From Candidatus Kapaibacterium sp. (lineage in GTDB: Bacteria > Bacteroidota > Ignavibacteria > Palsa-1295), in assembly GCA_038240295.1 (NCBI GenBank), contig JBBSDW010000001.1, positions 24,875 through 88,874 of the forward strand: a DNA stretch of 64,000 nucleotides, in the 5' to 3' direction. How positions within the stretch are numbered: position 1 is the stretch's first letter; every line of letters begins with the position of its first letter. A program made the translations under genes and the position numbers. The notes beneath the pieces were generated by a model. That model had not been told where the DNA came from. It saw nothing but the letters and a program-made list of their open reading frames with translations, and did not search any database. Positions 13,412 to 63,673 of this stretch are shown one piece after another.

Positions 13412-13414
13412 GCT

Positions 13415-14620: not shown

Positions 14621-14627
14621 ACTTCTG

Positions 14628-15233
14628 CTATTCAGGTTTGGATGTTACGGGTTTTCTTGAATCGAGTTCGGCGCGCTGCTGAGCTGTCAGATCGGAGGCA
14701 TGCGCATGCTGCGAAGTTTGCAACGCCTTCACATACGCAACAACCGCCCACCGGTCTGCTGGGTCGAGCTGCATTGCATAATCGGGCATCATGCCAAAAC
14801 CATTGGTGATCACATCGAAAAAATGTCCGGGCGGCGCAGCAAGAAGCCCGGTATCGGTACTAAAGTTAGGCGGGGGTGGAAACCCACGCCGTACGACCAT
14901 CCCATCGCCCGCACCCGATAACCCATGACACGGACTGCAGTAAATATTGAAGCGCGCCTGACCGCGATCGAGCATCGCACCAGTGATCGGATATGGGAAC
15001 GTCGCAACGTCGGAGCCTTTACCGGATGCATCGATGGTCTTGCCCTGATAAAAAGCTGGATCTGCTCGAAGAAATCCTCGTGCAACGGTTCCCTCTACGA
15101 GCGGCCGCATGGAGAGGCTATCGTCGAAGACCGCGCTCGAACGGTATGGCTTCATCTTCGGCTGATCGTGCATTTCGTCCCTGCACGCGCCAAGTCCAAG
15201 TAAAGCTGCGATCAGAATGAGATATTTACTCAT
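14628..15233 (-). CDS. actE: Alternative complex III subunit ActE (monohaem cytochrome c lipoprotein)
   Basis: Lipobox LLGLGAC and a single CSPCH haem-binding motif. Confidence 0.8.
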   Translation of the reverse strand: MSKYLILIAALLGLGACRDEMHDQPKMKPYRSSAVFDDSLSMRPLVEGTVARGFLRADPAFYQGKTIDASGKGSDVATFPYPITGAMLDRGQARFNIYCSPCHGLSGAGDGMVVRRGFPPPPNFSTDTGLLAAPPGHFFDVITNGFGMMPDYAMQLDPADRWAVVAYVKALQTSQHAHASDLTAQQRAELDSRKPVTSKPE

Positions 15234-15768
15234 CGATGTCGGATACCTCCCTCGGATTCAAACTTTTTAAGAATTCGTGCGTGCCTTGATGCGTAAAAAG
15301 CGGGTCGGCTTTCGCGATCATCAAAAAAAAACGGTCGTTCGAGGCAAGTGCAAACCGCGGTACGTTAAAGGCCGGATGATATGGCTGCGGGAGTCCGTTC
15401 AGCGCGAGCATGCCGAGCACCGCCGCGAGCGCGGCAAAGAGCACCGTCATCTCGAAGGTGATCGGAATGAATGCAGGCCAGCTGTTGGTTGGCCGGCCAC
15501 CGACATTGATCGGATACGTGATAGCAGAGGCCCAGTACTGCAAGCCAAATCCAAAGAGGCCGCCAAGAATACCGCCGATCAATACGATAAGCGCAAGTTT
15601 GTTTTGCGCGAAGCCGATCGCCTCCGAAAGTTCTTCGATCGGGAATGGTGTGAATGCGTCGATGCGGCGATAACCTGCGGCATAGGTCGCACGTGCGGCG
15701 CGAACAAGTTCGTTCGGGGTATCGAACTCGGCAAGCAATCCGTAAAGCGGTGGTGCGATCTGTTTCAT
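15226..15768 (-). CDS. actD: Alternative complex III subunit ActD
   Basis: 180 aa membrane-anchored protein between actC and actE, as in ACIII operons. Confidence 0.7.
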   Translation of the reverse strand: MKQIAPPLYGLLAEFDTPNELVRAARATYAAGYRRIDAFTPFPIEELSEAIGFAQNKLALIVLIGGILGGLFGFGLQYWASAITYPINVGGRPTNSWPAFIPITFEMTVLFAALAAVLGMLALNGLPQPYHPAFNVPRFALASNDRFFLMIAKADPLFTHQGTHEFLKSLNPREVSDIDE

Positions 15769-15784
15769 GGCTGGTATTCCTTGA

Positions 15785-17167: not shown

Positions 17168-17173
17168 TGTCGC

Positions 17174-20100
17174 TTATGCGTTTTCCGTTTTGGTCGGTTT
17201 CAATGCAGGATTTGGATTTCGCAGGACGCTTAAATACGTGGTGCGCGGCCGAGTATTGAGATCGTCGAGCAGCGAGTAATTTCGCTTCGACGCCTTGAGT
17301 TTCGCAACCTTGCTGTTGGGATCGTTGATATTCCCGAACGTGATCGCATCTGCCGGACAGGCCGACTGACAGGCCGTCACGATCTCGCCGTCGCGAACGA
17401 GTCGGTTCTCCTTTTCAGATTCGATCTTCGCATTCTGTATGCGCTGAATGCAATAGGTGCACTTCTCCATGATGCCACGGCTGCGTACCGTCACCTCGGG
17501 GTTGCGTAAAAGTTTGAGCGACGCTGACGTCCAGTCGTTGAACAACAGAAAGTTAAAGCGGCGAACTTTGTAGGGGCAGTTGTTCGAGCAATAACGCGTA
17601 CCGACACATCGATTATAGACCATGTCATTGGTCCCTTCGGCCGAGTGCACTGTCGCCCCCACTGGACAAACGACTTCGCACGGAGCGTTCTCACAATGCA
17701 TGCAAGGGACAGGCTGAAACACCGACCCATTAGGGTTATCACCCGAACCGGTGAAATATCGATCGATACGGATCCAGTGCATTTCGCGGCTCATCATCAC
17801 CTGTTCCTTGCCGACAACAGGGATGTTATTCTCCGATTGACATGCGACCGTGCAGGCGCTGCAGCCTACACATGAATTGAGATCGATCGCAAGCCCCCAT
17901 GCATAGCCGTTATATGGCCAGTTCGGAAATAGCGAAAGGTCGCGCGGCGTTGGCGGTTCCTCTTCGTGGATATAATCAGGATGCTCCCGATACTCGTCGA
18001 ACGTTGTCTCGTGAACCAGATTCCATCCTTCCATAGAATGGTGCGTCTGCGTCTGAGCCATCACATAACGCTCGGCTGTACTGCGGACGATCAAGCCGGT
18101 TGCATTCCATGGTGTTCCTGTGTTCCGAATGAGATTTGCGTTGAATCCTGTCGCAGTCCCTACGTGACCAGCGCGCGTGCGTCCGTAACCGAGATGAAGC
18201 GTAACAACGCCATCCGGCTGACCCGGAAGTATCCAGGCGGGCGCCTTGATCTTTCTGCCTGCGAGTTCAAGCTCCACAACATCAACCTCGAAATCGCCGC
18301 CGCTCGAACCCATGGAATTTTCAAGTCGAAGATTGCGGGCATCACGCGGACTGAAGAATGCAGCATTATCCCATGTGAGCTTCGTCATTGTTTTTGGAAG
18401 CTCCTGCAACCAGCCATTGTTGGCGAACTGCCCGTCGTGGATGGTGGGGTCAAGTCGGAAATTTACCTCGAAGGTATTGGACGCTGGCTGCTGCTGCGGC
18501 GTTACGTTGGTAAGGAGCCCGCTTGTCTGTTTTGCGGTGAGTCCTCCGGCGGGCAATGCACTCTCTTTTAAAAAGCCATCGTGCACGGCCTGGCGCCAGG
18601 ATGCTTCTGTATTCAACGCTCCCTGCGATTTCCAGTATGCGCGGACAATTTCATAGGATGTGTGGTCCGATTGATCGATGATCGCAGCGAGCACTTCGTG
18701 CTTCGACTTGCCTTGATAGAGCGGTGCGATCAGCGGCTGCACGATCGAGATCGTACCATCATAAGCGCGGGTATCCGACCATGTTTCAAGATAATGAGCT
18801 TCGGGCACATGCCAGTGGCAATAGCTGCTCGTCTCGTCGTTATATAGCCCGTGATAAATGCGGAGTTGCACCGATTCAAGTGCCCCAGCAAAGTTCAAAT
18901 CTGCCGGGGCTGCATAGACAGGATTGCCACCGAGGATGATGAGCGTCGTGACCTTGCGCTGCTGCATATCTGCGACAAGCTCGCGGAGTCCATTGAGCTG
19001 TGCGACCGGATTGACTTCGAGCGGCTTCGTGAAGACGACCGTCGAACCGGCATTCCCCAGCGCACCATTCATTGCGTAGGCGAGCGCGTGGACTGCGGCC
19101 GGTTGTTCATCACCCGCGATCACAAGACTCGAACCACGATGAGCTTTGAGATCTTTTGCGACCTCCTCGATCATCAGTGAGAATGCTTCGGGCACTTCAG
19201 CTGCGGCACCCACACCGATCGCTGCAGCAACCCCTCGTGCGAACATTTCTACCTCGCTCGGCTTCATCGGAATACGATGATCCGAGTTACCGCCCGTCGC
19301 TGTGGCGGTTGTCTCAACCGCGTAAAGTCTGTTCGGCGTATTGCCCGCTTCGGGGTTTCGTTTTTTCGTGTAGTCTTTTATGTAACGGAGATTTTTGGGA
19401 TGGCTGGCAAGGAAATCGGCATCGAGCGAAAGAATTCGGTCTGCCTTTTCGAAGTGATAGATGGGACGAACAGGCTCGCCAAAGACTTCCTGCGCAGCCT
19501 GAAACGCGCCATCGCTCGCAGCGGACTCGTACTGATACCACGTTGCATTCGGATAGAGCTTTAACAGATCCATGATCTGCTTTCCGAGTGTCGGCGATAT
19601 TACGGGCTCAGTGAGAATGCGAAGTCCCTGACCGCCATTTGATTTTTCAACTCCAAGCGCGACGCGGATCTCTCCGATAAAACTCGACCAGGAATGGATC
19701 TCACCGGTGTAGGTGACAGCCTGCGAACGCTCGGGATCGTACAAACCAAGAATAGATGCCTGCGAAAAGATATCCGTGCCACCAAGCGTTGCAGGATGCT
19801 CCGGATTGCCTTCGATCTTCGTTGGCCGGCCTTCGTTGCTACGAACGAGCAATGGGGCTGCACCGCCCGACATCGGCATTGCTGTCGCAAAGTAAAGTGG
19901 CTTGCCTGCCACGATCTCTTCTGGCTGCCTGACATAAGGAAGGAGCTCTTCTTTTGGCTGATAGGCACAGCTGCTGAAACCAGCCAGCGCGAGCGACGCA
20001 CCCATCAACTGCAAGAATCGTCGACGCGAGAACGGATCGACGATCACTTCGACCTGCGATGGATACTCGCGCTTTACATAAGCTTCGAACTCCGGTGTGC

Positions 20101-20353
20101 CCGCCCATTCGTCAATGCTTCTCCAGTACTGTTTGCCGGACTTGCCTTCCACACTTTTTTGAAACGCCAGGACTTCACTGCTCGCAGCGTCGCGTGAGCC
20201 CGCCGCAATCGGATCTGGGGATTCAGGGGTCGTTGGCGTGTCCTGTCCGAGAACCGGCAACGAGAATCCGTTGCCCGATCCAAACTGGATAGGCCCAACT
20301 TCATCGTTCATCCGATCTTTTTTCTGTTGCATTAGCGGTGACAGGTCGAACAA
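17174..20353 (-). CDS. actB: Alternative complex III subunit ActB (molybdopterin-oxidoreductase-like domain fused to a 4Fe-4S ferredoxin-like domain), with a Tat-like motif
   Basis: Internal twin-arginine motif SRRRFLQLMGASLALAGF. Multiple Cys clusters (CVGCSACTVACQSENN, CMHCENAPCEVVCP, CVGTRYCSNNCP, CTYC...CQSACP). Confidence 0.9.
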   Translation of the reverse strand: MFDLSPLMQQKKDRMNDEVGPIQFGSGNGFSLPVLGQDTPTTPESPDPIAAGSRDAASSEVLAFQKSVEGKSGKQYWRSIDEWAGTPEFEAYVKREYPSQVEVIVDPFSRRRFLQLMGASLALAGFSSCAYQPKEELLPYVRQPEEIVAGKPLYFATAMPMSGGAAPLLVRSNEGRPTKIEGNPEHPATLGGTDIFSQASILGLYDPERSQAVTYTGEIHSWSSFIGEIRVALGVEKSNGGQGLRILTEPVISPTLGKQIMDLLKLYPNATWYQYESAASDGAFQAAQEVFGEPVRPIYHFEKADRILSLDADFLASHPKNLRYIKDYTKKRNPEAGNTPNRLYAVETTATATGGNSDHRIPMKPSEVEMFARGVAAAIGVGAAAEVPEAFSLMIEEVAKDLKAHRGSSLVIAGDEQPAAVHALAYAMNGALGNAGSTVVFTKPLEVNPVAQLNGLRELVADMQQRKVTTLIILGGNPVYAAPADLNFAGALESVQLRIYHGLYNDETSSYCHWHVPEAHYLETWSDTRAYDGTISIVQPLIAPLYQGKSKHEVLAAIIDQSDHTSYEIVRAYWKSQGALNTEASWRQAVHDGFLKESALPAGGLTAKQTSGLLTNVTPQQQPASNTFEVNFRLDPTIHDGQFANNGWLQELPKTMTKLTWDNAAFFSPRDARNLRLENSMGSSGGDFEVDVVELELAGRKIKAPAWILPGQPDGVVTLHLGYGRTRAGHVGTATGFNANLIRNTGTPWNATGLIVRSTAERYVMAQTQTHHSMEGWNLVHETTFDEYREHPDYIHEEEPPTPRDLSLFPNWPYNGYAWGLAIDLNSCVGCSACTVACQSENNIPVVGKEQVMMSREMHWIRIDRYFTGSGDNPNGSVFQPVPCMHCENAPCEVVCPVGATVHSAEGTNDMVYNRCVGTRYCSNNCPYKVRRFNFLLFNDWTSASLKLLRNPEVTVRSRGIMEKCTYCIQRIQNAKIESEKENRLVRDGEIVTACQSACPADAITFGNINDPNSKVAKLKASKRNYSLLDDLNTRPRTTYLSVLRNPNPALKPTKTENA

Positions 20354-20991
20354 CTTTCAAGCACGGCTTTCGATTGAATATTGTACTCTTTGGCAAGCCG
20401 TTTTCCACGTTCGGCTTGATCCGAGGGCACGGTCCATGCCATGTTGAAGATCTCGCTTTTTGGTCGCAGCACTTTTTCGGGATTGCGATGACAATCGAGG
20501 CACCACTCCATCTGGAGCGGGCTGACTTGCATCATGAGCGGCATTTGATCGACACGACCATGACACGTCGAGCAGCCTACGCCTTTGCTGACATGAATGC
20601 TGTGGTTGAAATAGACGAAGTCTGGCAGATCGTGCACTTTCGTCCACCGAATCGGCTTCCCGGTTCGAAAACTTGCGCGCACCGGTTCGAGGTATGGGCT
20701 ATCCTTCCAGATTTGCGAATGGCAGTTCATGCAGACGCGAGTCGGCGGAATTCCAGCTGACGCGGCCTTTTCGACGGAAGTGTGACAGTAGCGGCAATCG
20801 AGTCCGACATCGCCAACGTGATGCTTGTGACTGAACTGAACGGGCTGTTCGCGAGCAACGAACGCGTGCGTGATGTAATTGGAACGGTTGAATTCGGCGA
20901 TCGCGAACAGCGCACCAACAATAATGAACAGAGTCCCAAAAATGGTGACTCGGGCAAGCGTGTTCGTACTGTGGTGAAAGATCTGAGACAT
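20332..20991 (-). CDS. actA: Alternative complex III subunit ActA (pentahaem cytochrome c)
   Basis: Five CxxCH motifs (CRYCH, CMNCH, CSTCH, CLDCH, CSTCH) and an N-terminal TM anchor. Confidence 0.9.
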   Translation of the reverse strand: MSQIFHHSTNTLARVTIFGTLFIIVGALFAIAEFNRSNYITHAFVAREQPVQFSHKHHVGDVGLDCRYCHTSVEKAASAGIPPTRVCMNCHSQIWKDSPYLEPVRASFRTGKPIRWTKVHDLPDFVYFNHSIHVSKGVGCSTCHGRVDQMPLMMQVSPLQMEWCLDCHRNPEKVLRPKSEIFNMAWTVPSDQAERGKRLAKEYNIQSKAVLESCSTCHR

Positions 20992-53293: not shown

Positions 53294-55333
53294 TCATTTC
53301 GTCTGCAGTTCGGCTGCGAGCGGCGTCTGCACTTCGACCGTGACCGTTCGGCAATAGTAACGCCCTTCCGGCAGGTCGTTGCTATAGACCTGACGGTTTG
53401 ATCCGACGCCTTCGGTCCTGAGAATCTGCGTGTTGCTTTTATCGGCAAGGATAAGATCGCGCACGGCAAAGGCTCTACCCTGCGAAAGTTGCTGATTGTG
53501 TTTTGCTTCACCCAGATTATCGGTCGAGCCGATGATCGTCGATTTCGAACTATCGAGAATTGAATGCGCGACAAAGTGCGAGATCATCCGTTGATTTTGC
53601 GGAGTGATCGCCGACTTATCGAAATCGAAGACGATCAAACTCAGTCTGCTTAGTTCAAACGGATTCGTCGACTTCGCACTCGGGATTGATGTTCGACTGG
53701 TTGAACTAAGCCCGTCGCGGCCGTTTACGATCAAATTGCAATGAAGAGAATCGAGCGGATGGGTAGCGCTTGCGACGTTTGCGGTTGCCTGACTCGTGAT
53801 CGGCCAGTTGATATTCGTCGGAGGTCTTCCGAGGCCCGAGGTCTGCCAGATATTTTTATCTCTGGCGTCGACTGTCAATTTCCAGTGTTCGACATCGGCA
53901 GGATGATCCGTCTCAACGGCGAATGGTACCGATGCCGGTTCGTACGCATATTCTTTAAAGCGTTCGTGCAGGATCGGTCGCAGCAATTCGTCGTTCGGGC
54001 TGGTCAGTTCGACGCGTCTGTTTTCCTCGATGCCTTGCGGAAATTCGAGCGTCGATGGGAATGTCGGTCGCGTGCTGGTCGAAATCGTTATCCGCTGCGG
54101 CGCCACGCTCCAGGTATTTACGAGATACGACTTCACGCTTTCGGCACGCGCATTTGCGAGTTCAAGCGAGGCAGCTTCCGATGGGGTTTCTTTTCCATCG
54201 GTGGTTCCGTTGAGCACAAGTGCATAACTGCTGTCACGTGCCATCCTGCTTCCGATGACATTCAGAATATGATGATAGGCTTCGAGCGAATGGTGCGGCA
54301 GATCGGTCTCTTGGAATGAACGGGTGTCGTTGACGGCGATCGGATGATATCGAACGGGAAGCTGCGCGTTCGCGCTATCGAAGAAGACATAAGGCAAAAG
54401 TGGGAATGTCTCAGTCACGATCGTTTCGACGATCGTCAAGTGCGGAGCATTTACCGTAGAGAGCAATGCGATCGGCGGCACTGGCTGCATTTTTTTCTGA
54501 GCAAGCACCGGTGGCACGAGATTCGGCGCATCGGGAAGTTCGAGGCCCGGAGGTGAATATCGAAGTGCAAGTCCAAATTCGAGCGAGCTTACTTTCCAGC
54601 TATAGCCACTGACAATTCCTGTAAAGGGCAAGTAGTAGCGCACTTCGGGAGCGGCAGTGAGTCCGACACCGAACGGAAATTGATAGCCGAGCGCACCGGC
54701 CATTCCAACCGGCATCTTGATCCCGGCGATCGCACCCGTCGCAACATCGCGCGTTGTCGTGTGCGTCTGAGGATAGACGACCCCTTGCGGCGAAAGGATC
54801 TGTTCGGTCTGATGATAGCTCGATGAGCCGAGCGGCGCACTAACGTTAAGTGTCGCCCGCGCATAAAGTGGAAATGTCGCTATCGGTTTATATTCGAGTC
54901 CGACATCGAGAACCGCGAACCCAAGATTTGCACTCGCGCTGTTCTTGCGAAGCAAGGTCACATACTGATTCGTGTTTGGATCGAGAATAGGAAGTAAACC
55001 CGAATTGACAACGCCGAACGTACCTCCGCGCTGCGCATATTGCAGGCTTGCGTAGAGCCCCATCCCCTCCGTGAAAAAAGGCAGCGTACCGAACGCGCCT
55101 AACGAAAATCCACTGCCTGTTCCCTGATCAAAATTTCCGCAGTTGACACAGTTCTGAAATAGCTGCTCCTGCGTTTTATGGAAGTTGAGGGAGTATCCGC
55201 TTAAGAGCCCGAGCGAAAAAGATTGCGGCGAATAATTTTCAGTCGCCTCCTGCGCGAATGCAGAAGTCGCAATCATGAGCATGAGCATGCCGGCAAGTGC
55301 GCAGCTCACTGTATGAAGAGATTTAAAAAGCAA
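53294..55333 (-). CDS. OmpA-family outer-membrane protein (N-terminal beta-barrel region plus C-terminal OmpA/MotB peptidoglycan-binding domain)
   Basis: Signal peptide. C-terminal FDFDKSAI...NQQLSQGRAFAV OmpA-like domain. Confidence 0.8.
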   Translation of the reverse strand: MLFKSLHTVSCALAGMLMLMIATSAFAQEATENYSPQSFSLGLLSGYSLNFHKTQEQLFQNCVNCGNFDQGTGSGFSLGAFGTLPFFTEGMGLYASLQYAQRGGTFGVVNSGLLPILDPNTNQYVTLLRKNSASANLGFAVLDVGLEYKPIATFPLYARATLNVSAPLGSSSYHQTEQILSPQGVVYPQTHTTTRDVATGAIAGIKMPVGMAGALGYQFPFGVGLTAAPEVRYYLPFTGIVSGYSWKVSSLEFGLALRYSPPGLELPDAPNLVPPVLAQKKMQPVPPIALLSTVNAPHLTIVETIVTETFPLLPYVFFDSANAQLPVRYHPIAVNDTRSFQETDLPHHSLEAYHHILNVIGSRMARDSSYALVLNGTTDGKETPSEAASLELANARAESVKSYLVNTWSVAPQRITISTSTRPTFPSTLEFPQGIEENRRVELTSPNDELLRPILHERFKEYAYEPASVPFAVETDHPADVEHWKLTVDARDKNIWQTSGLGRPPTNINWPITSQATANVASATHPLDSLHCNLIVNGRDGLSSTSRTSIPSAKSTNPFELSRLSLIVFDFDKSAITPQNQRMISHFVAHSILDSSKSTIIGSTDNLGEAKHNQQLSQGRAFAVRDLILADKSNTQILRTEGVGSNRQVYSNDLPEGRYYCRTVTVEVQTPLAAELQTK

Positions 55334-55355
55334 TCGGAACAGCGTAATTATTGGT

Positions 55356-58300
55356 CTAACGGACGATCATCATTCGTCGCGTATCGTGATAACTTCCAGC
55401 CTCGAAGCGGATGTAGTAAGCTCCGGGGGCACATCCTGTGAGGTCGAGATCGACGGAATATTTTCCGCCTTTCATCAATGTATAACCATCGAGCGGCCTC
55501 GAAACGACTGCACCGGTCGCACTGTAGACTTTCATCGAAGCGTAGGCATCTTCAACAAATTCGACATCGAGCTTCACGCGGCCGTTCGATGGGTTCGGCG
55601 ATGGGATCGAGATCGAATTGATACCACCTTTGAATTCAAGATAGGAAATATTGCAGCGCGGATCGACGCGCACGCTTGTTGTGTCGCCCATCGGCACTGG
55701 CGTAATCCAGAGATCCGAATCGCTCGTGAAGAGCGCCGGCGCAAGGATCATTTTCGTAACAATACTATCCGGGACTGCGACAACAAACTTGATCCGAGCG
55801 ATCTCACCCTTCTTGACATTCTGCGCTTTGGGCAGTGAGATCGAAAGGCCTGCGCCAATTTGTTTTATTACCGGCGTCGCATAGCTCGAGGTTGCGCTCA
55901 CATATTGCAGCGCACGGCGATCGTAGACGAGCGAATACTTGATGTCGATCGGATTCAGCGGGAAATCTCGATCGATCATGATCGGTACATACACCGTATC
56001 CGAAATCACTCCGGCAACTGAATCGATCGAGCTTACGGTACCGCCGATCACAAGGTTTAGCGGAAAGGGCGGCGCATAGCCGAAACTATGCAGGCTCCCG
56101 CTGTCATTGATCGGACAGGGACTATTCGAGACCGAAAAAAGCGAGGTATCGAATGTTGCTTGCGCGCGCGGACAAAACCTCACGGTCAGTACGATCGAGT
56201 CACCTGGCGCAAGGATCGCTGGGTATGGCTTGTTGCTTGCGACTACGGAATGCCACTTAGGCAAGCCTACAAGCGAATCGAAGCGAACCGGAATCAGACC
56301 GGGATTCCTCACCGTCACAAATCGATCGTCACACGAACGCGCATTTACCGTATCGAATCTGGTGCCTCGCGAGATCGCGATCATCGGCTGCGCGATCTCG
56401 ACATATCCTTTATCGATACCGGCGACGATCTTAAAAAAGACAAGCGAATCGCTATCGAAGAAAATACTGTCGATCGAAATTGGAAATTTCGTCGCTCCGC
56501 CCCTCACGACGAACTTCACATAGGCGATGACTCCCGCCTGCACGTTGCGCGCATCTTTCAGATTTGCATGCGCACCGTCTGTAGAATCTTTAATGGTTGC
56601 AAGGGCGGTGTATTGCGACTGGATGCCGATAATTCTGAGCGCTGTTGTGTCGTATCCAAGCCTGAAAATGATGTCGATGATATTCTGCGGGATCGCGCGG
56701 CTGAGCATGATCGGCAGCGTGAGCGTGTCGCAGGTGTTCAGTACGATCGTATCGCGATCGACCTTGGCGGTGTCAAAAGCCATTTGCAATCCAAAGGCTG
56801 GAGCGAACCCACTACCCATGACGAGTATCGATGTATCGATGCCATCGCACGGAAACACCGTATGCAAAAGCATCCTCGCGATATAGGTCTTGGGCGCACG
56901 CGGGAAGAAATTCACCTTGACCGAAAATTTCTCACCACGATGGATCACCCACGGCAGCGGTGCACCTGTCGAGGCAACGACGCTGAATACTTTTTGATCG
57001 GGTTGAAACGAGACCCAATCGATAACGACACTATCGCCGCTCGGATTAACGAACGGATCGGGCACTGCAATATCGACGGCGATCGCCTGCGCGCTCGTGT
57101 CGACGCGGGTTGCAGGAAAATTGACGAGCACTTTGCTCGGTTGAAAATTGAGCTCTCGCCGTCCGCTTAGGATCGTGGTATAGGTTTGCGACCAGCCCGG
57201 CGTATGTGCAGCGATATGGAGCGTTGCGTTGAGCAGCACGTTCGCCTGAATAGCCGGGATGTTGGGACAGAATGAAATCGTGAGCGTATCACCCGATCCG
57301 GGTGGAATCCTGTAAGGCGCCGTTGTACCAGCGATGAACGAACTCCAACGATAAACCGTCGGATTCGGATTTGGCACACCGGCTCCGTCGATCCAGATCG
57401 AATCAATCGTGATCGGAACGAGATTGCTGTAGTTCGGAAGCGGTATCGATCGGTTGAGACAATCGCACGGCTTGATCAAGCTATAATTGACAAAGCTGAG
57501 TGGAACCTCGAGTTTTACAAGTTGCCCATTGCCGGTTAGTACACCGCCATAACTGATCGTACATGGTTGATCCGTCTGCACGGTGATGGGACCATCGTAG
57601 CTCGTCTGGGTCGTTGGTTTGAACTGCACATAAACCCATAGGCTATCGCGCGGCTGCAGGAGATCTGGCAGCGGCGGGTTTGTGCTGAGCACAGTGTAGC
57701 CAGGCGGCACATTGATAGCTGTGATGTGCAGCGGGATCGAACTATTATTTTCGAGTAGGATGCTATCCGTTTTTTGCCAGCCGACTTCTACGGTTTGAAA
57801 TGTGGTGAGTGGCGTTACATACAGTTTCGGCGCAAGGCTCGTCGCACGAATGAGCAATTCATATTTTTCGCCATTCGATAGATTGATATCGATGTAGCCA
57901 TCGTCGGCACGATCGAGCACGAGATCGTTCGGGCAATAGGTTACGATATACTGGATCGCAGTGCCCGCTTTGAAGAGTCCCGCATGCGTTGCGCTCACGA
58001 GTTTCATCTTTCCGCTTGGATCGATGAGTTGATCGTTCGTGACCGTAAGATCGGAACTTGTGATGTTCGTCGCCGTGATCGTATCGGTTTGACACTGACA
58101 TCCGATCACATCCGTGATCGGCAGATAAGGCGGCTGAAATGAAAGATCCTGAAAGACACCCGTGCCCGTGATCGGAATTTCGATCGTACTAAAACATCCT
58201 TCGTCGAATACGGCAAGTGTGTCAACGTAATTCTTTAACTCTCGCGGCCTGAATTCGACGGTGATCGTTTTGGTCTGCCCCGGCTGGATCGTAAACGATT

Positions 58301-60296
58301 TTCCTCCGACGATCGTGAAGACGTCCCCAATCTTTAAATACGAAGCAAGATCGCGGGCATTGGCTCCGTGATTGGTCACCGTCGCAGTTAATTGCAGTGT
58401 CTTACCGATCGTGACATTTCCATACGCGATCAACGCTTGATTGAACGAAAAGTCGACGGATATGCCGCTGCCACTTAATCCTATGCGCTTGACGATCGTG
58501 CATCCATGATAATGGGAATAGACTTTCATTTCCCCGGCCACAGGACCCGGCGCAGTAGGTTTGAATCTTACGTAAACAGCCTGATACGCATTCTTGGGTG
58601 CAAGCTTGATCGGGAAGCGAAAGGACGGTCCAAAAAACTGCGGCTGACTGTAGGTGATCGAATCGATGTAGACCGTATCGACGGTGAGCCCGCGATATTG
58701 ATAGAGTCTCACGCTCGAGATCTGCGTTGGACAAACAGCTTCGAAGGCCATCGTATCGACGATGCGCTTGCCATCAGTTGCGAGCAATGCGATCACCGCC
58801 TGCGACCTTCCGTAGATCGGGATCACCCCGCTGCCCGGGCACGCATCGTTACTCTTGATACGAAGTGTGTCATAGAGCGTCTTTGAAGAATCGAGCTGAT
58901 CAAAATGGACCATCATGATCCAGCACTGGCCTGGCTGAAGTGTCAGCGGCAACGCGCCAAATCCTCCAGCCGGATGCCACGTGAAATAATTCGAATCGAA
59001 CTGTGCACCGGAGATGGTGACAGGCGTGCCGGCGATGTTGCAAATCTTTACCGTGTCCTCATAGAACTTCGTTTCTTCGCATCCGACATAAAGCGTATCG
59101 AACTTCACCGAGCCTGTAGAGTAACTTAGCTGCGTTGTTCGGTTGATCGTGATCGGTACCGAGAGCGGTGTGCCGCACCTGTTCGCGCTTGTTATCACCA
59201 GATTCGCAGTGAGCGTCCCGATCTGGTTGGCGTGCAGATCCATCGTTACCTGCTGACCTACATTTTGCGACAGTACGAGTGACTTTGAAGAAAGCGTGAA
59301 CAACCCAGCTGAGGCACCGCTCACACTTAGATTGACCCGATCGCCGCAAAACGAAGTGTCGGTGATCGTAAAAACAAAGGTTGTATCGCTTGTGCACGCA
59401 AGCGATGTTGCGACGGATGCGGGAAGTACCGTATAGGTTAGCGGGACGACGCGAGTGCTTACATCACAGTGTGCACCGCTTCGCATCCTGCCGATCATGT
59501 GACCTGCTGCATCGCAAAGGAATTGGGTGCCTACAGGTTCGTTGCACCTGAAATACATGATGAGCCCAGGCTCATTTCCACTTAGTGAAAGAAGTCGCTG
59601 GCAGTCGACCTCATGCTGCGAAAGTGCGCGGCGCCACAATCGGACTTCGTCGAGTTGCCCAAGGAATGCACGGTAGCGCGACGAATCATCATAGAGCGCG
59701 TTGCAGCTTGCGAGCTGCATGCCGAGCGCCGAACTTTCGATCGGATGAAGATGCGTGATCGGATATTGCACGTTGCCGGTTCTCGCGACTTCCTGACCAT
59801 CGACGAGTAACCTTCCCTGCGTCGATTGTCCATCCCACACGGCTGCGATGTGCACCCAGCCTCGCGTATAGAGGTCGGGTATGAGCGCCTGCACAATCGT
59901 GTTATCGAGATCGCCTTTAAATGATCCATCGGGACTGAGCGCAAAGACAAGTTCGTTGTCCTCGATATAAACGACCCACTGATCGTTGTTGTCTTTGTTC
60001 GGTCCCCAGAGTCCAGCGACAAATTGCCGCTTGCCCGGTTGCGGCTTTGGTGCGATCCAGGCCTCGAACGTCATCGCAGTATCCATCGCGCGCATGACAT
60101 AAGACGTATCGATATCGACATACTGCGCGCCCTTGCCAGCCGTCACCCGAATCGTAAGCGCATTGCCAACGCATGATTTATCTCCATCGCATTTCGCTGG
60201 ATACTGTGCACGTACGTCGCTGCTCAACAAAAGCGCGATCATCGCGACGCAACCCAGGAGCACTCGGATGGCCGAATGGTGACGATTGAAGTTCAT
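55356..60296 (-). CDS. Giant cell-surface protein (1646 aa): LamG/ConA-like lectin domain, many Ig-like beta-sandwich repeats, T9SS C-terminal sorting domain
   Basis: Signal peptide. LamG-like FEAWIAPKP...WVHIAAVWDG...LDEVRLWRRAL. Repetitive beta-sandwich modules. C-terminal KVYSATGAVV...GAYYIRF domain. Confidence 0.8.
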   Translation of the reverse strand: MNFNRHHSAIRVLLGCVAMIALLLSSDVRAQYPAKCDGDKSCVGNALTIRVTAGKGAQYVDIDTSYVMRAMDTAMTFEAWIAPKPQPGKRQFVAGLWGPNKDNNDQWVVYIEDNELVFALSPDGSFKGDLDNTIVQALIPDLYTRGWVHIAAVWDGQSTQGRLLVDGQEVARTGNVQYPITHLHPIESSALGMQLASCNALYDDSSRYRAFLGQLDEVRLWRRALSQHEVDCQRLLSLSGNEPGLIMYFRCNEPVGTQFLCDAAGHMIGRMRSGAHCDVSTRVVPLTYTVLPASVATSLACTSDTTFVFTITDTSFCGDRVNLSVSGASAGLFTLSSKSLVLSQNVGQQVTMDLHANQIGTLTANLVITSANRCGTPLSVPITINRTTQLSYSTGSVKFDTLYVGCEETKFYEDTVKICNIAGTPVTISGAQFDSNYFTWHPAGGFGALPLTLQPGQCWIMMVHFDQLDSSKTLYDTLRIKSNDACPGSGVIPIYGRSQAVIALLATDGKRIVDTMAFEAVCPTQISSVRLYQYRGLTVDTVYIDSITYSQPQFFGPSFRFPIKLAPKNAYQAVYVRFKPTAPGPVAGEMKVYSHYHGCTIVKRIGLSGSGISVDFSFNQALIAYGNVTIGKTLQLTATVTNHGANARDLASYLKIGDVFTIVGGKSFTIQPGQTKTITVEFRPRELKNYVDTLAVFDEGCFSTIEIPITGTGVFQDLSFQPPYLPITDVIGCQCQTDTITATNITSSDLTVTNDQLIDPSGKMKLVSATHAGLFKAGTAIQYIVTYCPNDLVLDRADDGYIDINLSNGEKYELLIRATSLAPKLYVTPLTTFQTVEVGWQKTDSILLENNSSIPLHITAINVPPGYTVLSTNPPLPDLLQPRDSLWVYVQFKPTTQTSYDGPITVQTDQPCTISYGGVLTGNGQLVKLEVPLSFVNYSLIKPCDCLNRSIPLPNYSNLVPITIDSIWIDGAGVPNPNPTVYRWSSFIAGTTAPYRIPPGSGDTLTISFCPNIPAIQANVLLNATLHIAAHTPGWSQTYTTILSGRRELNFQPSKVLVNFPATRVDTSAQAIAVDIAVPDPFVNPSGDSVVIDWVSFQPDQKVFSVVASTGAPLPWVIHRGEKFSVKVNFFPRAPKTYIARMLLHTVFPCDGIDTSILVMGSGFAPAFGLQMAFDTAKVDRDTIVLNTCDTLTLPIMLSRAIPQNIIDIIFRLGYDTTALRIIGIQSQYTALATIKDSTDGAHANLKDARNVQAGVIAYVKFVVRGGATKFPISIDSIFFDSDSLVFFKIVAGIDKGYVEIAQPMIAISRGTRFDTVNARSCDDRFVTVRNPGLIPVRFDSLVGLPKWHSVVASNKPYPAILAPGDSIVLTVRFCPRAQATFDTSLFSVSNSPCPINDSGSLHSFGYAPPFPLNLVIGGTVSSIDSVAGVISDTVYVPIMIDRDFPLNPIDIKYSLVYDRRALQYVSATSSYATPVIKQIGAGLSISLPKAQNVKKGEIARIKFVVAVPDSIVTKMILAPALFTSDSDLWITPVPMGDTTSVRVDPRCNISYLEFKGGINSISIPSPNPSNGRVKLDVEFVEDAYASMKVYSATGAVVSRPLDGYTLMKGGKYSVDLDLTGCAPGAYYIRFEAGSYHDTRRMMIVR

Positions 60297-60326: not shown

Positions 60327-61931
60327 TTAACGTACACATTCGATCATGTGCGTGATCCGCTCTGTGCCTGCACTTACCGTACAGATGTAGGTACCGCTCG
60401 CGAGCGGCCTTCCAGTGATCTGCATTGGATCGAACGGGATCTGATGCAGCCCGGCCGCAAGTCTCCGCTGAAGGATCGCGCCCAGATGCTGACCAGCGAT
60501 GTTCGAGATCTCGATCGAAACATCGCTCGCATTATCAAGCGAAAGCTGCAGCATCGTAGTCGTCGCAAAGGGATTCGGATAATTCGAAAGCACCATTGAG
60601 CTTGCCTGAGCGGGAGTGCTGTTGATCCCGCGCTGCGTCTTGATCACGCCGAGCGGCTCGACGGTGATATCATCCGAAGGCAATTGCAACACTGCTTTCG
60701 CATCTACTGCGGCAAGCCCAAACCACTTTGTCAGCACGTCCATATAGACGCGGCGATAGTCGATCTGCTTTGGGACATCCCCGTTCTCATCAAGATTGCC
60801 GAGGTCGGGTGTTTGACCGAAGACGCCGGAATTGACCTGCGTACCAAATACGAACTGCACTGACGCAGCGCCATGATCGGTACCAAACGAGCCATTCTCC
60901 GCTGGGCGGCGGCCGAATTCGCTGACGGTCAATCCGATGACGCGATCTGCTTCGCCGAGCGCTACCATATCGTGCATGAACTGTGCGACACCATCGCCCA
61001 AATGACTCATGAGATTCGGATGCTGACCGCTATTAGGATCGGTCTGCTGCGTTACATGGGTATCGAATCCACCCAGCGAAACGACATACACTTTTGTTTG
61101 CAGGCCACCTGCGATGAGCGCTGCAACGGAAGCCATTTGCTGCCCAAGACTGTCGCTGCCGTAGGTTGCCTTCAACTTGGATTTTCCCGCAGCGTAGGCA
61201 TTCCGGATATTCAGCGCATAAGTGTTCGAGCGGCTCGCGATGTCGGAGACGAAGGCGTATTCGTCCGCGTAATGCGTGCCGGTCGCATTTGCATCCTGCG
61301 CATCGAGATCGGAGCTTACCCCTAACTGCTTGCTGGGATCGGAGACTTCAACGCCCATTCGCCCCTTATCGCTAATGAGCGTCAGCGAGAATCCGCCGAG
61401 CTGAATCGCAAGCGGATCGGGCGGCAGCGTTTGTGGAAAGCTCGGATATTGCTTTTCAAGCATACGCCCGACCCATCCGGTCGAGAGCAGATGATTCGGA
61501 TCGGAATCGTTTATGCCGCTGAGCCAGATATCGGTCGAACGAAAATGCGAAAGATTAGGATTGTCATATCCAACGCCTTGAACCACGGCTGCATACCCAG
61601 TCTGTAGAAGCCTCACCATGCCACCCTGACTTCCAGCTGCGAGCTTCGGCGCAAAGTAAAGATTGCCGATGACGTTCGTTGCATCGGTCTTCAGAATACC
61701 GATCGTCGGACGAAGATTATAGTAGTTGGCATCGTCGACTGGTATGACGGTATTGAGTCCGTCGTTGCCACCGAAAAGCTGGATCACGATCAGGATCTTA
61801 TCGGAGGCATCTTCCTCCATCTGCGCGAGCAACGGCATCGGTGAAGATGCTCGAACGGGAATGCCATTGAGCAGGATCGGCGCTGCTGCTGCCGTCGCGG
61901 CGAGCGACTGAAGAAATGTTCTACGCTTCAT
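60327..61931 (-). CDS. DUF1501-family (sulfatase-like) protein with a twin-arginine signal and a T9SS C-terminal domain
   Basis: MKRRTFLQSLAATAAAAPIL Tat motif. DUF1501 core (FGGNDGLNTVIP, DTHV). C-terminus SNYPNPFATTTMLQL...GTYICTV is a type-A T9SS C-terminal domain. Confidence 0.75.
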   Translation of the reverse strand: MKRRTFLQSLAATAAAAPILLNGIPVRASSPMPLLAQMEEDASDKILIVIQLFGGNDGLNTVIPVDDANYYNLRPTIGILKTDATNVIGNLYFAPKLAAGSQGGMVRLLQTGYAAVVQGVGYDNPNLSHFRSTDIWLSGINDSDPNHLLSTGWVGRMLEKQYPSFPQTLPPDPLAIQLGGFSLTLISDKGRMGVEVSDPSKQLGVSSDLDAQDANATGTHYADEYAFVSDIASRSNTYALNIRNAYAAGKSKLKATYGSDSLGQQMASVAALIAGGLQTKVYVVSLGGFDTHVTQQTDPNSGQHPNLMSHLGDGVAQFMHDMVALGEADRVIGLTVSEFGRRPAENGSFGTDHGAASVQFVFGTQVNSGVFGQTPDLGNLDENGDVPKQIDYRRVYMDVLTKWFGLAAVDAKAVLQLPSDDITVEPLGVIKTQRGINSTPAQASSMVLSNYPNPFATTTMLQLSLDNASDVSIEISNIAGQHLGAILQRRLAAGLHQIPFDPMQITGRPLASGTYICTVSAGTERITHMIECVR

Positions 61932-61999
61932 AATGCTCCGTTGATTTATGCGTTAGAGCTGTACGTGAAAAATTGTTATGATTTGCAAGCGGTGCGTGC

Positions 62000-63673
62000 T
62001 CAGCAGAGTTGAAAGTCGGGCAGTTCGCTGATGGTTGTCAGCACCTGACGCATGTTGCTTGCCGCAGTCGATGGACTTTGCAGGATCGTTGGCCATTCAT
62101 ACGACGGTGCGTTCCCGGTCAGCTTATTGAGCAGATCGGTCGATCGCTGCGCCGAAAGTGCTCTTGGCAAAAGCAATGCGGCGACGTTCGTGATCAGCTT
62201 TTGTGCCTCAGTATAATTCGGGAATTGCATGATGAACGCAGTAACGGTTGCGTCGTCGAGCGCCGCGATAGCAGCTGTCGCGACGTTCGCGCGAACCGGA
62301 TAGGTCGTCGTCGTGATCCAATCGTGCCAGCCCGGCCAGCCGCTCACATTCGGCGGATTGAAGAGCGTCTGACCGAGACTAACCATCGTGGTATCGATGT
62401 TGAGTTTTGGAGCGATCTGTCTGGCGAACCCAACCGAAAATTCGGCCGGTGTTTTGATCTGCGCACCGATGTTCGCATTATCGAAAAAGTGTGCACTCTT
62501 TAGCAGCGCACTCATCACCGGTTTGATCGAAAAATTATTTTGCACCAGCAGATCCGCCATCGCCTGAACGACAAGCATATCGGATGAGGAAGGATTGCTA
62601 TAGACAAAGAACTGATAGAGCTTCGTCGAAATAAAGAGCGCAGCCGCCGAAGCGCGAACGGAGAAAAGCGTATCGATCAATTTTTGAACTTCTTCCTGCC
62701 GCACGATATATTCGGTGTTCGTCGTCGCATCGCGCGCGGGGAAGCTCACGCCGAGCAATTCCTTTTGGCCGATGTCATGCTGATCGGGCAGAAAGTACGT
62801 ATTGAAGATCTGGTTCGGTGCCGGCTCGTTGCTATACTGCGCGATGCGCCAGCCGGTAAGGATCCGGGCGGCGTTCTTCACGTCGCCTTCGGTGTATTGT
62901 CCGAGACCGATGGTAAAAAGCTCCATCAGCTCGCGCGCATAATTCTCGTTCGGAACGCCAACGGAGTTTTGATTACCTCCGAGATAATCGAGCATTCCAC
63001 CATCGAGCGTCATGCTCATTGCAAGATCGTTGAATTTTTCAAGACCATGCTGGCGAAAGTGATCGTTCTGCCGATAGAGTAACGGCGCCACGACATACGA
63101 TTGATCGGCAACGAACTGCGTCGTGAAATGTCCCGACCAGAACATCGTCATCTTCTCCGCGATCGTTGTACCTGCATCGCGCATGACGCCGGCAAACCAT
63201 GTACGAAGCGTTGCGGCATCCGCCGCCCATTTGGCCTCGAGTTGGCCGATGAGGACAGTATCGAGACCGTTCGTATTTGTCGTAAGCGAATCGGCAACCG
63301 CTGGCCTTGCAGGAGTGCTGGGTGTATTGAGTAGTAGATCTACAGCGTCCGATGGAGTGAGCGCACTGAGCGCCGCCATGTTTGCCCAGGTCGGCAGCAT
63401 CGTGGTTCTGCGTAGCAGGTGACCAATGCGTATCAGATCGCTATTCCACGGTTCGGATCCCGATGGCACATAGGGATCGAGTCCGGTACTTAGCGGACGA
63501 TTGATCGAACTGGTAGGTACGAAGTTCGCACCGGTTGCACCGGCTACACGTGTCAGAAAGGATCTGCGGTCCATAAAAGCCTGATAGACATCGCCAGCTG
63601 CCAAGGCAATCGGCAGCATAGCGAAAATGAAAATTAAATTTCCTGCAAACAGGAGCAGGAAGCGACAACACAA
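62000..63673 (-). CDS. DUF1800-family protein, usual partner of DUF1501
   Basis: DUF1800 pattern. Probable true start at MDRRSFLTRVAG (Tat-like). Confidence 0.7.
   Translation of the reverse strand: MCCRFLLLFAGNLIFIFAMLPIALAAGDVYQAFMDRRSFLTRVAGATGANFVPTSSINRPLSTGLDPYVPSGSEPWNSDLIRIGHLLRRTTMLPTWANMAALSALTPSDAVDLLLNTPSTPARPAVADSLTTNTNGLDTVLIGQLEAKWAADAATLRTWFAGVMRDAGTTIAEKMTMFWSGHFTTQFVADQSYVVAPLLYRQNDHFRQHGLEKFNDLAMSMTLDGGMLDYLGGNQNSVGVPNENYARELMELFTIGLGQYTEGDVKNAARILTGWRIAQYSNEPAPNQIFNTYFLPDQHDIGQKELLGVSFPARDATTNTEYIVRQEEVQKLIDTLFSVRASAAALFISTKLYQFFVYSNPSSSDMLVVQAMADLLVQNNFSIKPVMSALLKSAHFFDNANIGAQIKTPAEFSVGFARQIAPKLNIDTTMVSLGQTLFNPPNVSGWPGWHDWITTTTYPVRANVATAAIAALDDATVTAFIMQFPNYTEAQKLITNVAALLLPRALSAQRSTDLLNKLTGNAPSYEWPTILQSPSTAASNMRQVLTTISELPDFQLC

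Follow-up and report, generated by a model that had tools for sequence, protein, structure and literature searches.

Proteins secreted by the T9SS are described as Sec-dependent (PMC10202324, PMC12618676, PMC9251779) and the system is tabulated as "2 (Sec)" (PMC8047123); the first-pass annotation of this DNA likewise took Sec to be the normal route for T9SS cargo, and reviews agree (PMC8047123, PMC9251779, PMC12618676). Type-A cargo such as P. gingivalis RgpB and F. johnsoniae NucA carries an approximately 80-residue C-terminal beta-sandwich (TIGR04183) and occurs in FCB bacteria alongside other proteins with a T9SS C-terminal domain (CTD), and in both respects resembles the DUF1501 protein considered here. 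Described type-A cargo has Sec signal peptides (PMC10202324, PMC12618676, PMC8047123), whereas the DUF1501 clade has a conserved twin-arginine (RR) leader and would therefore enter the periplasm already folded; this predicted leader type is the point at which DUF1501 departs from described cargo. A two-step, "mosaic" route for folded, Tat-exported phosphoesterase-type enzymes is established in Pseudomonas aeruginosa, where PlcH, PlcN, PA3910 and PA4140 pass from Tat to the T2SS (PMC4899797), and we propose a route of the same kind for DUF1501. The outer-membrane step in P. aeruginosa is however the T2SS, with a conformational signal, and for DUF1501 the T9SS, with a predicted cleavable CTD, and the taxa and the partner protein differ as well. 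PlcH leaves the cell together with PlcR, a partner from the same operon. We put forward Tat-to-T9SS export of DUF1501 as a probable analogue of the Tat-to-T2SS route.

Two further systems bear comparison. DUF1501 modules also occur in Planctomycetes, Verrucomicrobia and Proteobacteria, where the partner is PSCyt/PSD1 or DUF1800. They share with the present locus the Pfam family, a twin-arginine motif, an obligate partner gene alongside and, in some clusters, Laminin_G_3 proteins (PMC3542564, PMC5122149). Their DUF1501 proteins are about 400 aa long, lack a CTD and are presumed periplasmic, whereas in the present case DUF1501 has gained a T9SS tail and, unlike in those modules, the DUF1800 partner has lost its h-region. 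In Tat hitchhiker complexes such as E. coli PaoABC and the hydrogenase small and large subunits a single subunit supplies the Tat signal, and partners that have none assemble with it in the cytoplasm and are exported along with it (PMC4273604, PMC10924467). We liken DUF1800 to such a passenger and propose co-export, but classic passengers have no RR while the putative passenger DUF1800 keeps a conserved one, and a DUF1800–DUF1501 complex would, unlike classic hitchhikers, also face an outer-membrane step. In open-access papers and bioRxiv preprints we found no description of Tat-routed T9SS cargo or of a DUF1501 with a CTD, and our literature search agrees with the earlier statement that the DUF1800/DUF1501 pair is functionally uncharacterised.

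Both open reading frames of the pair were found on the minus strand of the window (the whole 64-kb stretch of DNA analysed, from a Kapabacteria-like genome), as first annotated, and the features discussed below are collected in Table 1. DUF1800 lies immediately upstream of DUF1501 and adjoins it in essentially all loci, with gaps of 0–70 nt. The start codon of DUF1501 is unambiguous, an ATG with GGAG 6 nt upstream and just 7 in-frame codons back to a stop. DUF1800 had been read as a 557-aa protein, which proved over-extended: the TTG start at 63673, which would add a hydrophobic N-terminus, opens an extension that is not conserved among relatives, that is impossible in the closest relative (L001), where 6 codons upstream are followed by a stop, and into which a terminator-like hairpin (63661–63640) falls. 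The conserved start is the ATG listed in Table 1, and the upper bound of the finding is therefore 63574 and not 63673. The gene for a 1646-aa surface protein begins 30 nt downstream of DUF1501, with orthologues after the pair in L001, L002, L005, L007 and L074, and homologues of the OmpA-family protein that follows adjoin the pair in L002, L003, L005 and L074; the latter was rejected as the T9SS component PorE (NF052230, 20.7 against a cut-off of 600). The ActB-like subunit encoded elsewhere in the window is another predicted Tat client of the same genome.

Table 1. Features of the DUF1800/DUF1501 locus and its surroundings (positions within the window)
Feature	Positions	Strand	Extent	Basis or remarks
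DUF1501 gene	60327..61931	-	534 aa + stop	ORF, PF07394 match, AF2 model, Foldseek
Predicted Tat-type signal peptide of DUF1501, MKRRTFLQSLAATAAAAPILLNGIPVRA	61848..61931	-	aa 1-28	RR conservation, h-region KD, c-region
Predicted catalytic DUF1501 domain	60687..61799	-	aa 45-415	Invariant columns, AF2 secondary structure
Predicted type-A T9SS CTD of DUF1501	60330..60593	-	aa 447-534	TIGR04183, AF2, Foldseek, PDB sequence matches
DUF1800 partner gene	62000..63574	-	524 aa + stop	Start = ATG at 63574
DUF1800 leader, MDRRSFLTRVAGATGANFVPTSSINRPLST	63485..63574	-	aa 1-30	RR kept, no hydrophobic core
Surface protein	55356..60296	-	1646 aa	Laminin_G_3, choice-of-anchor D and Ig-like repeats, T9SS CTD, Sec-type leader
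OmpA-family protein	53294..55333	-	679 aa	PF00691, 72 bits; 22 nt beyond the 1646-aa gene
ActB-like alternative-complex-III molybdopterin/FeS subunit	17174..20353	-		Tat-variant signal; TIGR04519, 58.7 bits against a cut-off of 20.6

The DUF1501 protein begins MKRRTFLQ and its leader is predicted to be cleaved after V-R-A, ahead of S-S. Against the twin-arginine consensus (S/T)-R-R-x-F-L-K it reads K-R-R-T-F-L-Q at aa 2–8, its relatives mostly having MKRRTFLK. Tat leaders were judged by three features, an h-region that is uncharged, moderately hydrophobic and no shorter than 13 residues, a basic c-region residue and an A-x-A-type cleavage site, and the DUF1501 leader has all of these: 22 uncharged residues, with a Kyte-Doolittle value of the best 12-residue stretch (KD) of 2.03, are followed by P-V-R-A and then S, the basic residue lying in the c-region. 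R3, R4 and F6 reach at least 90% conservation in an alignment of 86 sequences that average 30% identity, the RR is kept in 117 of 120 close homologue clusters and its Arg codons vary synonymously among relatives. Of these 117, 88 have a basic residue before the final c-region Ala and 114 have small-x-A. RR-bearing DUF1501 leaders have a median h-region KD of about 1.7. On the same contigs 14 CTD proteins of Sec type, all of them without an RR, have a median of 2.81 (Mann-Whitney p≈1e-9). DUF1501 leaders thus appear to behave as Tat rather than Sec leaders. That the RR is incidental to, or tolerated in, an ordinary Sec signal peptide, DUF1501 being conventional Sec-to-T9SS cargo, would agree with a literature that treats all T9SS cargo as Sec-dependent and with the curated Tat models, Pfam TAT_signal (PF10518) scoring 16.3 bits, below its gathering score of 22.7, and TIGR01409 being silent on the window protein and matching just 18 of 86 relatives. 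Short models of this type (PF10518, TIGR01409) are known to be insensitive. We hold such a Sec leader to be highly improbable, given that R-R-x-F is nearly invariant at 30% identity with its Arg codons synonymously turned over, that the h-regions are markedly less hydrophobic than those of the RR-less Sec CTD leaders, and that in phyla lacking a T9SS DUF1501 is itself predicted to depend on Tat, its twin-arginine trait having been recorded earlier for Proteobacteria and PVC bacteria (PMC5122149, PMC3542564). The predicted Tat signal is an ancestral DUF1501 trait and the predicted CTD a lineage-specific addition.

At the other end of the protein TIGR04183 matches aa 451–527 of 534 with 30.8 bits, the curated cut-off being 23. 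The tail carries the motifs YPNPF and G-x-Y and a basic terminus, PNP and G-x-Y being invariant in the family, and is modelled as a seven-strand beta-sandwich (pLDDT >93) for which Foldseek returns the CTD of NucA in complex with the F. johnsoniae T9SS (8glk_D, TM 0.68). The two relevant Pfam models both stay below their gathering score of 27, Por_Secre_tail (PF18962) at 22.2 bits and FlgD_ig at 24.9 bits; precomputed annotations place PF18962 on many DUF1501 relatives and often list PF13860. These near-equal scores and the frequent PF13860 annotations, like the absence of a T9SS core gene from the 64-kb window, would suit a generic Ig/FlgD-like binding or anchoring domain on an enzyme that stays periplasmic, as in other phyla. 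Such an assignment appears most improbable to us in view of the TIGR04183 score above cut-off and its recurrence in 74 of 86 relatives, the strictly C-terminal position and invariant PNP and G-x-Y of the domain, the structural match to a translocon-bound CTD, and the PDB sequence matches of the family, which are solely solved T9SS CTDs (8glk_D, 5hfs, 7pq4 and 8qb1). CTD-less DUF1501 relatives measure about 400–420 aa, and one from Latescibacterota has a dockerin-like tail in the place of the CTD. The tail thus seems to track the secretion system, being present in FCB lineages and absent or replaced elsewhere.

Between leader and tail lies a domain that matches PF07394, of the alkaline-phosphatase (AP) clan, over aa 45–415 with 93 bits (gathering score 27). 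D57, S128, H129, D290, H292, D352 and H353 are invariant or nearly so in the family alignment and sit at strand ends or at a helix N-terminus in the AF2 secondary structure, a placement as expected for a putative AP-type metal and nucleophile site. Foldseek matches of the AF2 model (pLDDT 86.9) are S1 sulfatases, choline sulfatase, GPE phosphodiesterase, P. aeruginosa PlcN (9gy2) and LtaS-type proteins, with a probability of 0.96–1.0 despite a global TM of just ~0.3; as modelled, the domain has the AP-superfamily alpha/beta core fold. When PDB sequences were searched with the profile of the family, CTDs alone were matched and no solved relative of the catalytic domain came up. Type I (formylglycine) sulfatases have a C/S-x-P-x-R signature at the nucleophile, and this is absent at S128, around which DUF1501 reads N-L-S-H-F-R-S. 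We predict DUF1501 to be a metal-dependent hydrolase or esterase of the alkaline-phosphatase superfamily.

Relatives and homologues were drawn from MAGs and metagenomes, the 86-protein set representing named genomes from six or more FCB lineages, and architectures were counted over 142 full-length DUF1501 representatives at 50% identity. Of these, 131 have the RR, 123 the CTD and 114 both, in a clade that spans Kapabacteria, Rhodothermales, Flavobacteriia, Cytophagales, Saprospiraceae and Marinimicrobia. Chance is excluded as the source of the combination because both elements are conserved across homologues, and RR plus predicted CTD is a conserved architecture of a large, FCB-wide DUF1501 clade and not a one-off. 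The first-pass annotation had assigned DUF1501 both a Tat signal and a type-A T9SS CTD and had called the pairing unusual. Both assignments are borne out, the former by the RR in the homologue clusters, the low h-region KD and the V-R-A site and the latter by TIGR04183; the pairing is indeed unusual against the published Sec-only view, but it is not peculiar to this gene, and a CTD is routine among the DUF1501 proteins of this clade. The pairing also recurs in an unrelated family, the intradiol dioxygenases, Fe cofactor enzymes of which about 110 of 120 clusters have RR and CTD. The Tat plus CTD reading of DUF1501 is, at the level of bioinformatics, robust.

The partner is a different matter. 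DUF1800, an all-alpha protein that matches PF08811 with 303 bits (gathering score 26.1) and for which no solved structural relative was found, has in 99 sequences an invariant R3 and R4 and an M1 and F6 that are at least 90% conserved (M-x-R-R-x-F), with no consensus over the roughly 20 residues after the motif. The best 12-residue KD of its leader is 0.78 versus 2.03 for DUF1501, the family medians are 0.35 and 1.72, and the leader is modelled as disordered. Without a hydrophobic core this leader is therefore not a complete Tat signal peptide, so that of the "Tat-like" N-terminus first ascribed to DUF1800 the twin-arginine motif stands and the h-region does not. The Arg codons of the RR vary synonymously, and a nucleotide-level element behind the conserved MDRR was ruled out because they swap between the AGR and CGN families. 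By lineage, the DUF1800 leader is a full Tat signal in a few cases (L026, L015), an RR without h-region in Kapabacteria, and missing altogether in Flavobacteriia; leader types of DUF1800 and DUF1501 showed no pattern of co-variation over the 23 comparable locus pairs, a small sample. From these sequences it would seem that in this lineage the Tat signal of DUF1800 shed its hydrophobic core while the RR stayed. Export of DUF1800 alone by a weak Tat-like leader, as the first annotation implied, could draw on the 16-residue uncharged stretch that follows the RR in the window protein and includes VAGATGANFV. We consider it very unlikely, considering the KD difference from DUF1501, the frankly polar leaders of close orthologues (for example MDRRTFLTSWRSSGSRFDNNF and MQRRAFLKGDLVETKEIDNPK) and the finding that 0 of 103 RR-bearing family members reach a KD of 1.5.

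DUF1800 might instead stay in the cytoplasm and serve DUF1501 as a maturation factor or chaperone, the headless RR being the remnant of a signal kept as a docking peptide. The vestigial Tat motif of NarG binds NarJ, and in DUF1800 the RR invariant without an h-region, the all-alpha character and the tight gene linkage are all consistent with such an analogy. Against it, the full Tat signals in L026 and L015 mean that the ancestral DUF1800 worked outside the cytoplasm, and its length of 520 aa and roughly 60 invariant polar residues suggest an enzyme or ligand-binding subunit more than a signal-peptide chaperone; a weak point in the same direction is the recovery of DUF1800 proteins in a vesicle or envelope-type fraction of Entotheonella (PMC12981691). 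A chaperone role thus strikes us as unlikely.

Taken together, we consider two-step Tat-then-T9SS export of the DUF1501 enzyme, with DUF1800 as its partner, the probable explanation. DUF1501 would fold in the cytoplasm, probably gaining its metal centre there, and its twin-arginine signal peptide would take the folded protein across the inner membrane via Tat. The T9SS, with a PorV/SprA-type translocon, would then recognise the folded C-terminal beta-sandwich and pass the already folded protein through the outer membrane; the CTD would then be removed and the enzyme released or anchored at the surface, its most likely role being to cleave phospho- or sulfo-esters of organic matter outside the cell. 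The Tat-then-T9SS mechanism is not problematic, since folded proteins are known T9SS cargo (PMC9251779). No tat genes (tatA, tatC) or T9SS core genes lie within the 64-kb window; both systems are probably in use in the organism, to judge from the two CTD proteins that the window contains besides DUF1501 and from its Tat-variant client. DUF1800, as obligate partner, would most likely be bound to DUF1501 in the cytoplasm and be taken along through the inner membrane as a Tat hitchhiker, and this would also account for the pair's need of Tat in the first place; hitchhiking is the weakest part of our explanation and we offer it tentatively, as somewhat less than an even chance. A more far-reaching version, in which a DUF1800–DUF1501 heterodimer of ~110 kDa is assembled in the cytoplasm, passes through Tat on the DUF1501 signal with the DUF1800 RR as a second docking element, and then crosses intact through the T9SS on its single CTD, as part of a general Tat-to-T9SS branch for cofactor enzymes, we regard as distinctly doubtful; the intradiol dioxygenases, in using the same signals, would define that general branch.

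CTD proteins with twin-arginine leaders, being widespread and conserved, imply that not every T9SS effector enters the periplasm unfolded via Sec, and at least two unrelated metalloenzyme families have this combination. This suggests that the T9SS, like the T2SS, may be fed by both inner-membrane pathways and may take cargo that is folded and cofactor-loaded in the cytoplasm, which bears on cargo recognition by PorV and SprA, on the usefulness of the T9SS for the display of cofactor enzymes and on substrate prediction, where pipelines that demand a Sec signal would miss such families. Were the heterodimer version true, the T9SS would be the outer-membrane terminus of a folded-complex export pathway. 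Carriers of the DUF1800/DUF1501 pair exist among culturable marine Flavobacteriia and Cytophagia; Maribacter litopenaei, Aquimarina amphilecti and Jiulongibacter sediminis are examples of cultured carriers. For the very abundant DUF1800/DUF1501 pair itself the finding is a first concrete handle: in these bacteria, to judge from its signals, the pair probably acts outside the cell.

DUF1800 and DUF1501 are encoded head-to-tail on the minus strand of the window, and the start of the latter is unambiguous: its ATG follows a GGAG, and an upstream stop is reached in only seven in-frame codons. In the DUF1501 leader, MKRRTFLQSLAATAAAAPILLNGIPVRA ahead of SS, the twin-arginine motif is close to consensus, the h-region has 22 uncharged residues and moderate hydrophobicity, and the c-region holds a basic residue and the cleavage-type site V-R-A. 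Residues 45–415 match PF07394 (Pfam; 93 bits, gathering score 27), and residues 451–527 match TIGR04183, the NCBIfam model for type-A T9SS sorting domains (30.8 bits, curated cutoff 23). The short Pfam models stay below threshold on this protein (Por_Secre_tail, 22.2 vs 27; TAT_signal, 16.3 vs 22.7), and TIGR01409 gives no match. The first-pass annotation had read here a Tat signal combined with a type-A T9SS C-terminal sorting domain (CTD), and this predicted combination is borne out by the leader consensus, the above-cutoff TIGR04183 match and the conservation of both elements.

Features of the window and of locus L024, with coordinates and strand
Feature	Location	Strand	Remarks
DUF1800 leader	63485-63574	-	invariant M-x-R-R-x-F without h-region
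DUF1501 gene	61931 to 60327	-	534 aa
Giant CTD protein and OmpA-family protein	53294-60296	-	directly downstream of DUF1501
Four-gene run		-	DUF1800, DUF1501, 1646-aa LamG/choice-of-anchor-D CTD protein, 679-aa OmpA-family protein
QrcA-like multihaem cytochrome	20332-20991	-	alternative complex III-like cluster
ActB-like molybdopterin/FeS subunit	17174-20353	-	alternative complex III-like cluster; Tat-variant signal
DsrP/QrcD-like membrane subunit	15785-17167	-	alternative complex III-like cluster
CoxB, CtaD, CtaE	8479-11936	-	oxidase genes
Arylsulfotransferase (ASST) beta-propeller + Big_5 + T9SS CTD	6200-8125	-	Por_Secre_tail 37.5 bits; Sec-type leader
Intradiol-dioxygenase CTD protein	L024:917-1858	+	314 aa; Marinimicrobia UBA2986 contig

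The AlphaFold2 model (pLDDT 86.9 overall) places a seven-strand β-sandwich at residues 447–532 (pLDDT >93), with a linker of low confidence between it and the catalytic domain, and Foldseek aligns this tail with the NucA CTD that was captured in the T9SS complex of F. johnsoniae (8glk_D, TM 0.68). When all PDB sequences were searched with the family profile, every hit was a solved T9SS CTD: 8glk_D, two gingipain CTDs (5hfs, 7pq4) and mirolase (8qb1). Within the tail, P452 and P454 of the PNP motif and G513 and Y515 of G-x-Y show little or no variation. Tail-less relatives measure about 400–420 aa. In the relatives from L019 (a Latescibacterota locus) and P0384 a dockerin-like end, …DGDGKVGFSDFIAFARAFG, replaces the CTD, as expected if the sorting tag can be exchanged; the tail that sorts or anchors DUF1501 is thus swapped between phyla.

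The start MKRR(T/S)F(L/I)K occurs in 117 of the 120 best DUF1501 clusters (90%-identity level, 51–100% identical, all ~525–550 aa), the other three being N-terminally truncated gene calls. In an alignment of 86 proteins whose mean column identity is only 30%, R3, R4 and F6 each reach at least 90% conservation, and TIGR04183 matches 74 of the 86. With HMMER, searched exhaustively against 1.84 billion representatives, 1,491 proteins were recovered at E ≤ 1e-30. Of the 150 nearest representatives at the 50%-identity level, 142 are full-length proteins, with the RR motif present in 131, a terminal CTD in 123 and both in 114, the exceptions being mostly R-K variants or truncated calls; the CTD seen on the one window protein recurs in most of these representatives. 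For both Arg codons of the motif, AGR and CGN forms interchange freely, so selection acts at the protein level. That RR motif and CTD occur on DUF1501 beyond chance is settled by this conservation across the aligned proteins. A scan of species-representative genomes yielded at least 597 relatives. The 80 best stem from MAGs labeled Kapaibacteria, Ignavibacteria, Chlorobiota, Rhodothermales, Marinimicrobia, Saprospiraceae, Chitinophagales and Cytophagales, as well as from Flavobacteriales (labels as deposited; two, Patescibacteria and Hyphomicrobiales, are probably mis-binned), and the carriers include the cultured strains Maribacter litopenaei, Aquimarina amphilecti DSM 25232, Flagellimonas spp. 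and Jiulongibacter sediminis. In Flavobacteriia and Rhodothermales orthologues a conserved His/Cys-rich stretch of 25–40 residues precedes the RR motif (for example MCDxH…LEHGxAHxxDHxxWSRRDFL; loci L014, L018, L023, L037, L049, L072 and others; proteins P0372, P0408 and P0477), which may be metal-binding or an extended n-region.

A Sec reference set was assembled from 14 other CTD proteins of the window and of the retrieved loci, and leaders were compared by the Kyte–Doolittle value (KD) of their most hydrophobic 10-residue stretch. All 14 leaders are of the classic Sec type, without RR. Median KD is 2.81 for these Sec-type leaders versus 1.68–1.73 for DUF1501 and 1.98 for the intradiol dioxygenases discussed below, the DUF1501 h-regions being less hydrophobic than those of the Sec-type set (Mann–Whitney, p ≈ 1e-9). 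Lower h-region hydrophobicity is a recognized property of Tat signals. Among 117 close DUF1501 homologues, 114 have a small-x-A site and 88 a basic residue directly ahead of the c-region's final Ala. Twin-arginine motifs have been reported on DUF1501 proteins of Proteobacteria (PMC5122149) and of Planctomycetes/Verrucomicrobia (PMC3542564), so the Tat signal is ancestral to the family. The ActB-like alternative-complex-III subunit passes the curated "TAT-variant-translocated molybdopterin oxidoreductase" model (58.7 vs 20.6), pointing to other Tat clients in this organism. The alternative complex III-like cluster lies next to cytochrome c oxidase genes (8479–20991, minus strand). Two further CTD proteins of the window, the ASST protein and the 1646-aa protein directly downstream of DUF1501, both carry Sec leaders; the ASST protein appears to be a secreted sulfotransferase.

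Scanning the fetched loci for further CTD proteins revealed a second family. The dioxygenase of L024 contains a PF00775 intradiol ring-cleavage dioxygenase domain (96.9 bits), a CTD above Pfam's own Por_Secre_tail threshold (30.6 vs 27) and the leader MISRRRFLQLSGITAAGIIF. Strict RR-x-Φ-Φ is found in 89 of its 120 best homologue clusters (P0241–P0360) and RR is kept in about 110, clusters off the strict pattern showing mostly KRRQALK or SRRKALK variants, while good h-regions and CTD tails are present in all 120. With DUF1501, at least two unrelated metal-enzyme families thus pair Tat-type leaders with T9SS tails.

The 557-aa DUF1800 frame of the first-pass annotation proved to be over-called. 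Homologues begin M-D/N-R-R, the DUF1800 of the nearest relative meets an upstream stop at six codons, and a terminator-like hairpin (63661–63640) lies within the supposed extension, which together place the conserved start at the ATG at 63574, giving 524 aa. R3 and R4 never change across 99 aligned orthologues (alignment A3), conservation of M1 and F6 reaches at least 90%, and the Arg codons vary synonymously. The 20–25 residues that follow are polar and hypervariable, with no consensus and no hydrophobic core: the best 12-residue KD has a median of 0.35 with none at or above 1.5 (DUF1501: median 1.72, 87% at or above 1.5), and the window leader, MDRRSFLTRVAGATGANFV…, reaches 0.78. Residues 1–27 are disordered in the predicted structure. 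Of the "Tat-like" leader proposed earlier, the twin-arginine motif therefore stands as invariant, but the h-region is absent and the signal incomplete; as read from these alignments, it is a "headless" twin-arginine motif under protein-level selection. The leader is wholly missing in Flavobacteriia, and a full Tat signal is found in a few lineages (L026, L015); since DUF1800 has its own export signal in some lineages, it presumably works outside the cytoplasm. The main alternative takes DUF1800 for a cytoplasmic chaperone-like protein and its RR, now without an h-region, for a remnant signal, against which the full Tat signals of those lineages speak. In lineages that have lost the h-region, DUF1800 would most simply leave bound to DUF1501, a hitchhiker mode of co-export known for PaoABC and others (passages in PMC4273604 and PMC10924467), and this would explain the Tat dependence of the pair. 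We put forward hitchhiking on DUF1501 tentatively, giving it rather less than an even chance. Two or three tandem DUF1800–DUF1501 pairs occur in Aquimarina (L049, L072) and in L040; in L026, a single DUF1501 is instead preceded by three DUF1800 paralogues, all with full Tat signals.

The gaps in the four-gene run are, in order, 68, 30 and 22 nt, and no terminator-like site was found in these three gaps. The giant protein and the OmpA-family protein are conserved neighbors of DUF1800–DUF1501 in Kapabacteria-type loci, with orthologues of ~1650–1710 aa (Laminin_G_3/choice-of-anchor-D, CTD) and ~680 aa in L001, L002, L003, L005, L007 and L074, which suggests that the four genes form a surface module. 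Laminin_G_3 partners beside DUF1501 are also described in PVC bacteria (PMC3542564). Assignment of the OmpA-family neighbor as PorE was rejected, as it fails the PorE model.

Foldseek assigns the DUF1501 catalytic domain to the alkaline-phosphatase (AP) superfamily with probability 0.96–1.0 and weak global superposition, matches including S1 sulfatases, choline sulfatase, glycerophosphoethanolamine phosphodiesterase, P. aeruginosa PlcN and LtaS-type enzymes. Conservation is complete or almost complete at D57, S128, H129, D290, H292, D352 and H353, residues that sit at strand ends or a helix N-terminus in the modeled fold, a layout that would fit the metal and nucleophile site of AP-type enzymes. 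DUF1501 lacks the signature of formylglycine sulfatases, its sequence reading N-L-S-H-F-R-S. Judging from these residues and the missing signature, DUF1501 would be a metal-dependent esterase using Ser as nucleophile, closer to phosphoesterases than to classical sulfatases.

That T9SS cargo is normally Sec-exported, as the first-pass annotation held, agrees with the reviews: a table in PMC8047123 gives "2 (Sec)" for T9SS and "2 (Sec/Tat)" for T2SS, and Sec dependence of T9SS cargo is stated in PMC9251779 and in a passage of PMC12618676. Our searches of open-access papers and bioRxiv preprints turned up neither a report of T9SS cargo routed through Tat nor one of DUF1501 bearing a CTD. Folded proteins pass T9SS via the large SprA barrel (PMC9251779), and T2SS takes substrates from both Sec and Tat, PlcH and PlcN among them (PMC4899797), so that a Tat-to-T9SS route would not be mechanistically exotic; T2SS is likewise fed by Tat, whereas the predicted outer-membrane step of DUF1501 is T9SS. 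Tat signal, AP-superfamily enzyme and type-A CTD are each known, and it is their predicted combination that is undescribed and runs against the stated Sec rule. Our readings of DUF1501 and DUF1800 export all rest on sequence inference. Within that frame the earlier interpretation is partly supported: Tat plus T9SS on DUF1501 is strengthened and generalized, but the DUF1800 signal falls short for want of an h-region. Some members are already named "T9SS type A sorting domain-containing protein" at NCBI, and the domain architecture is visible in databases. The sequences themselves are not new; the novelty lies in recognizing the route, by which the DUF1501 protein of the window quite probably travels through Tat and then T9SS, and its breadth.
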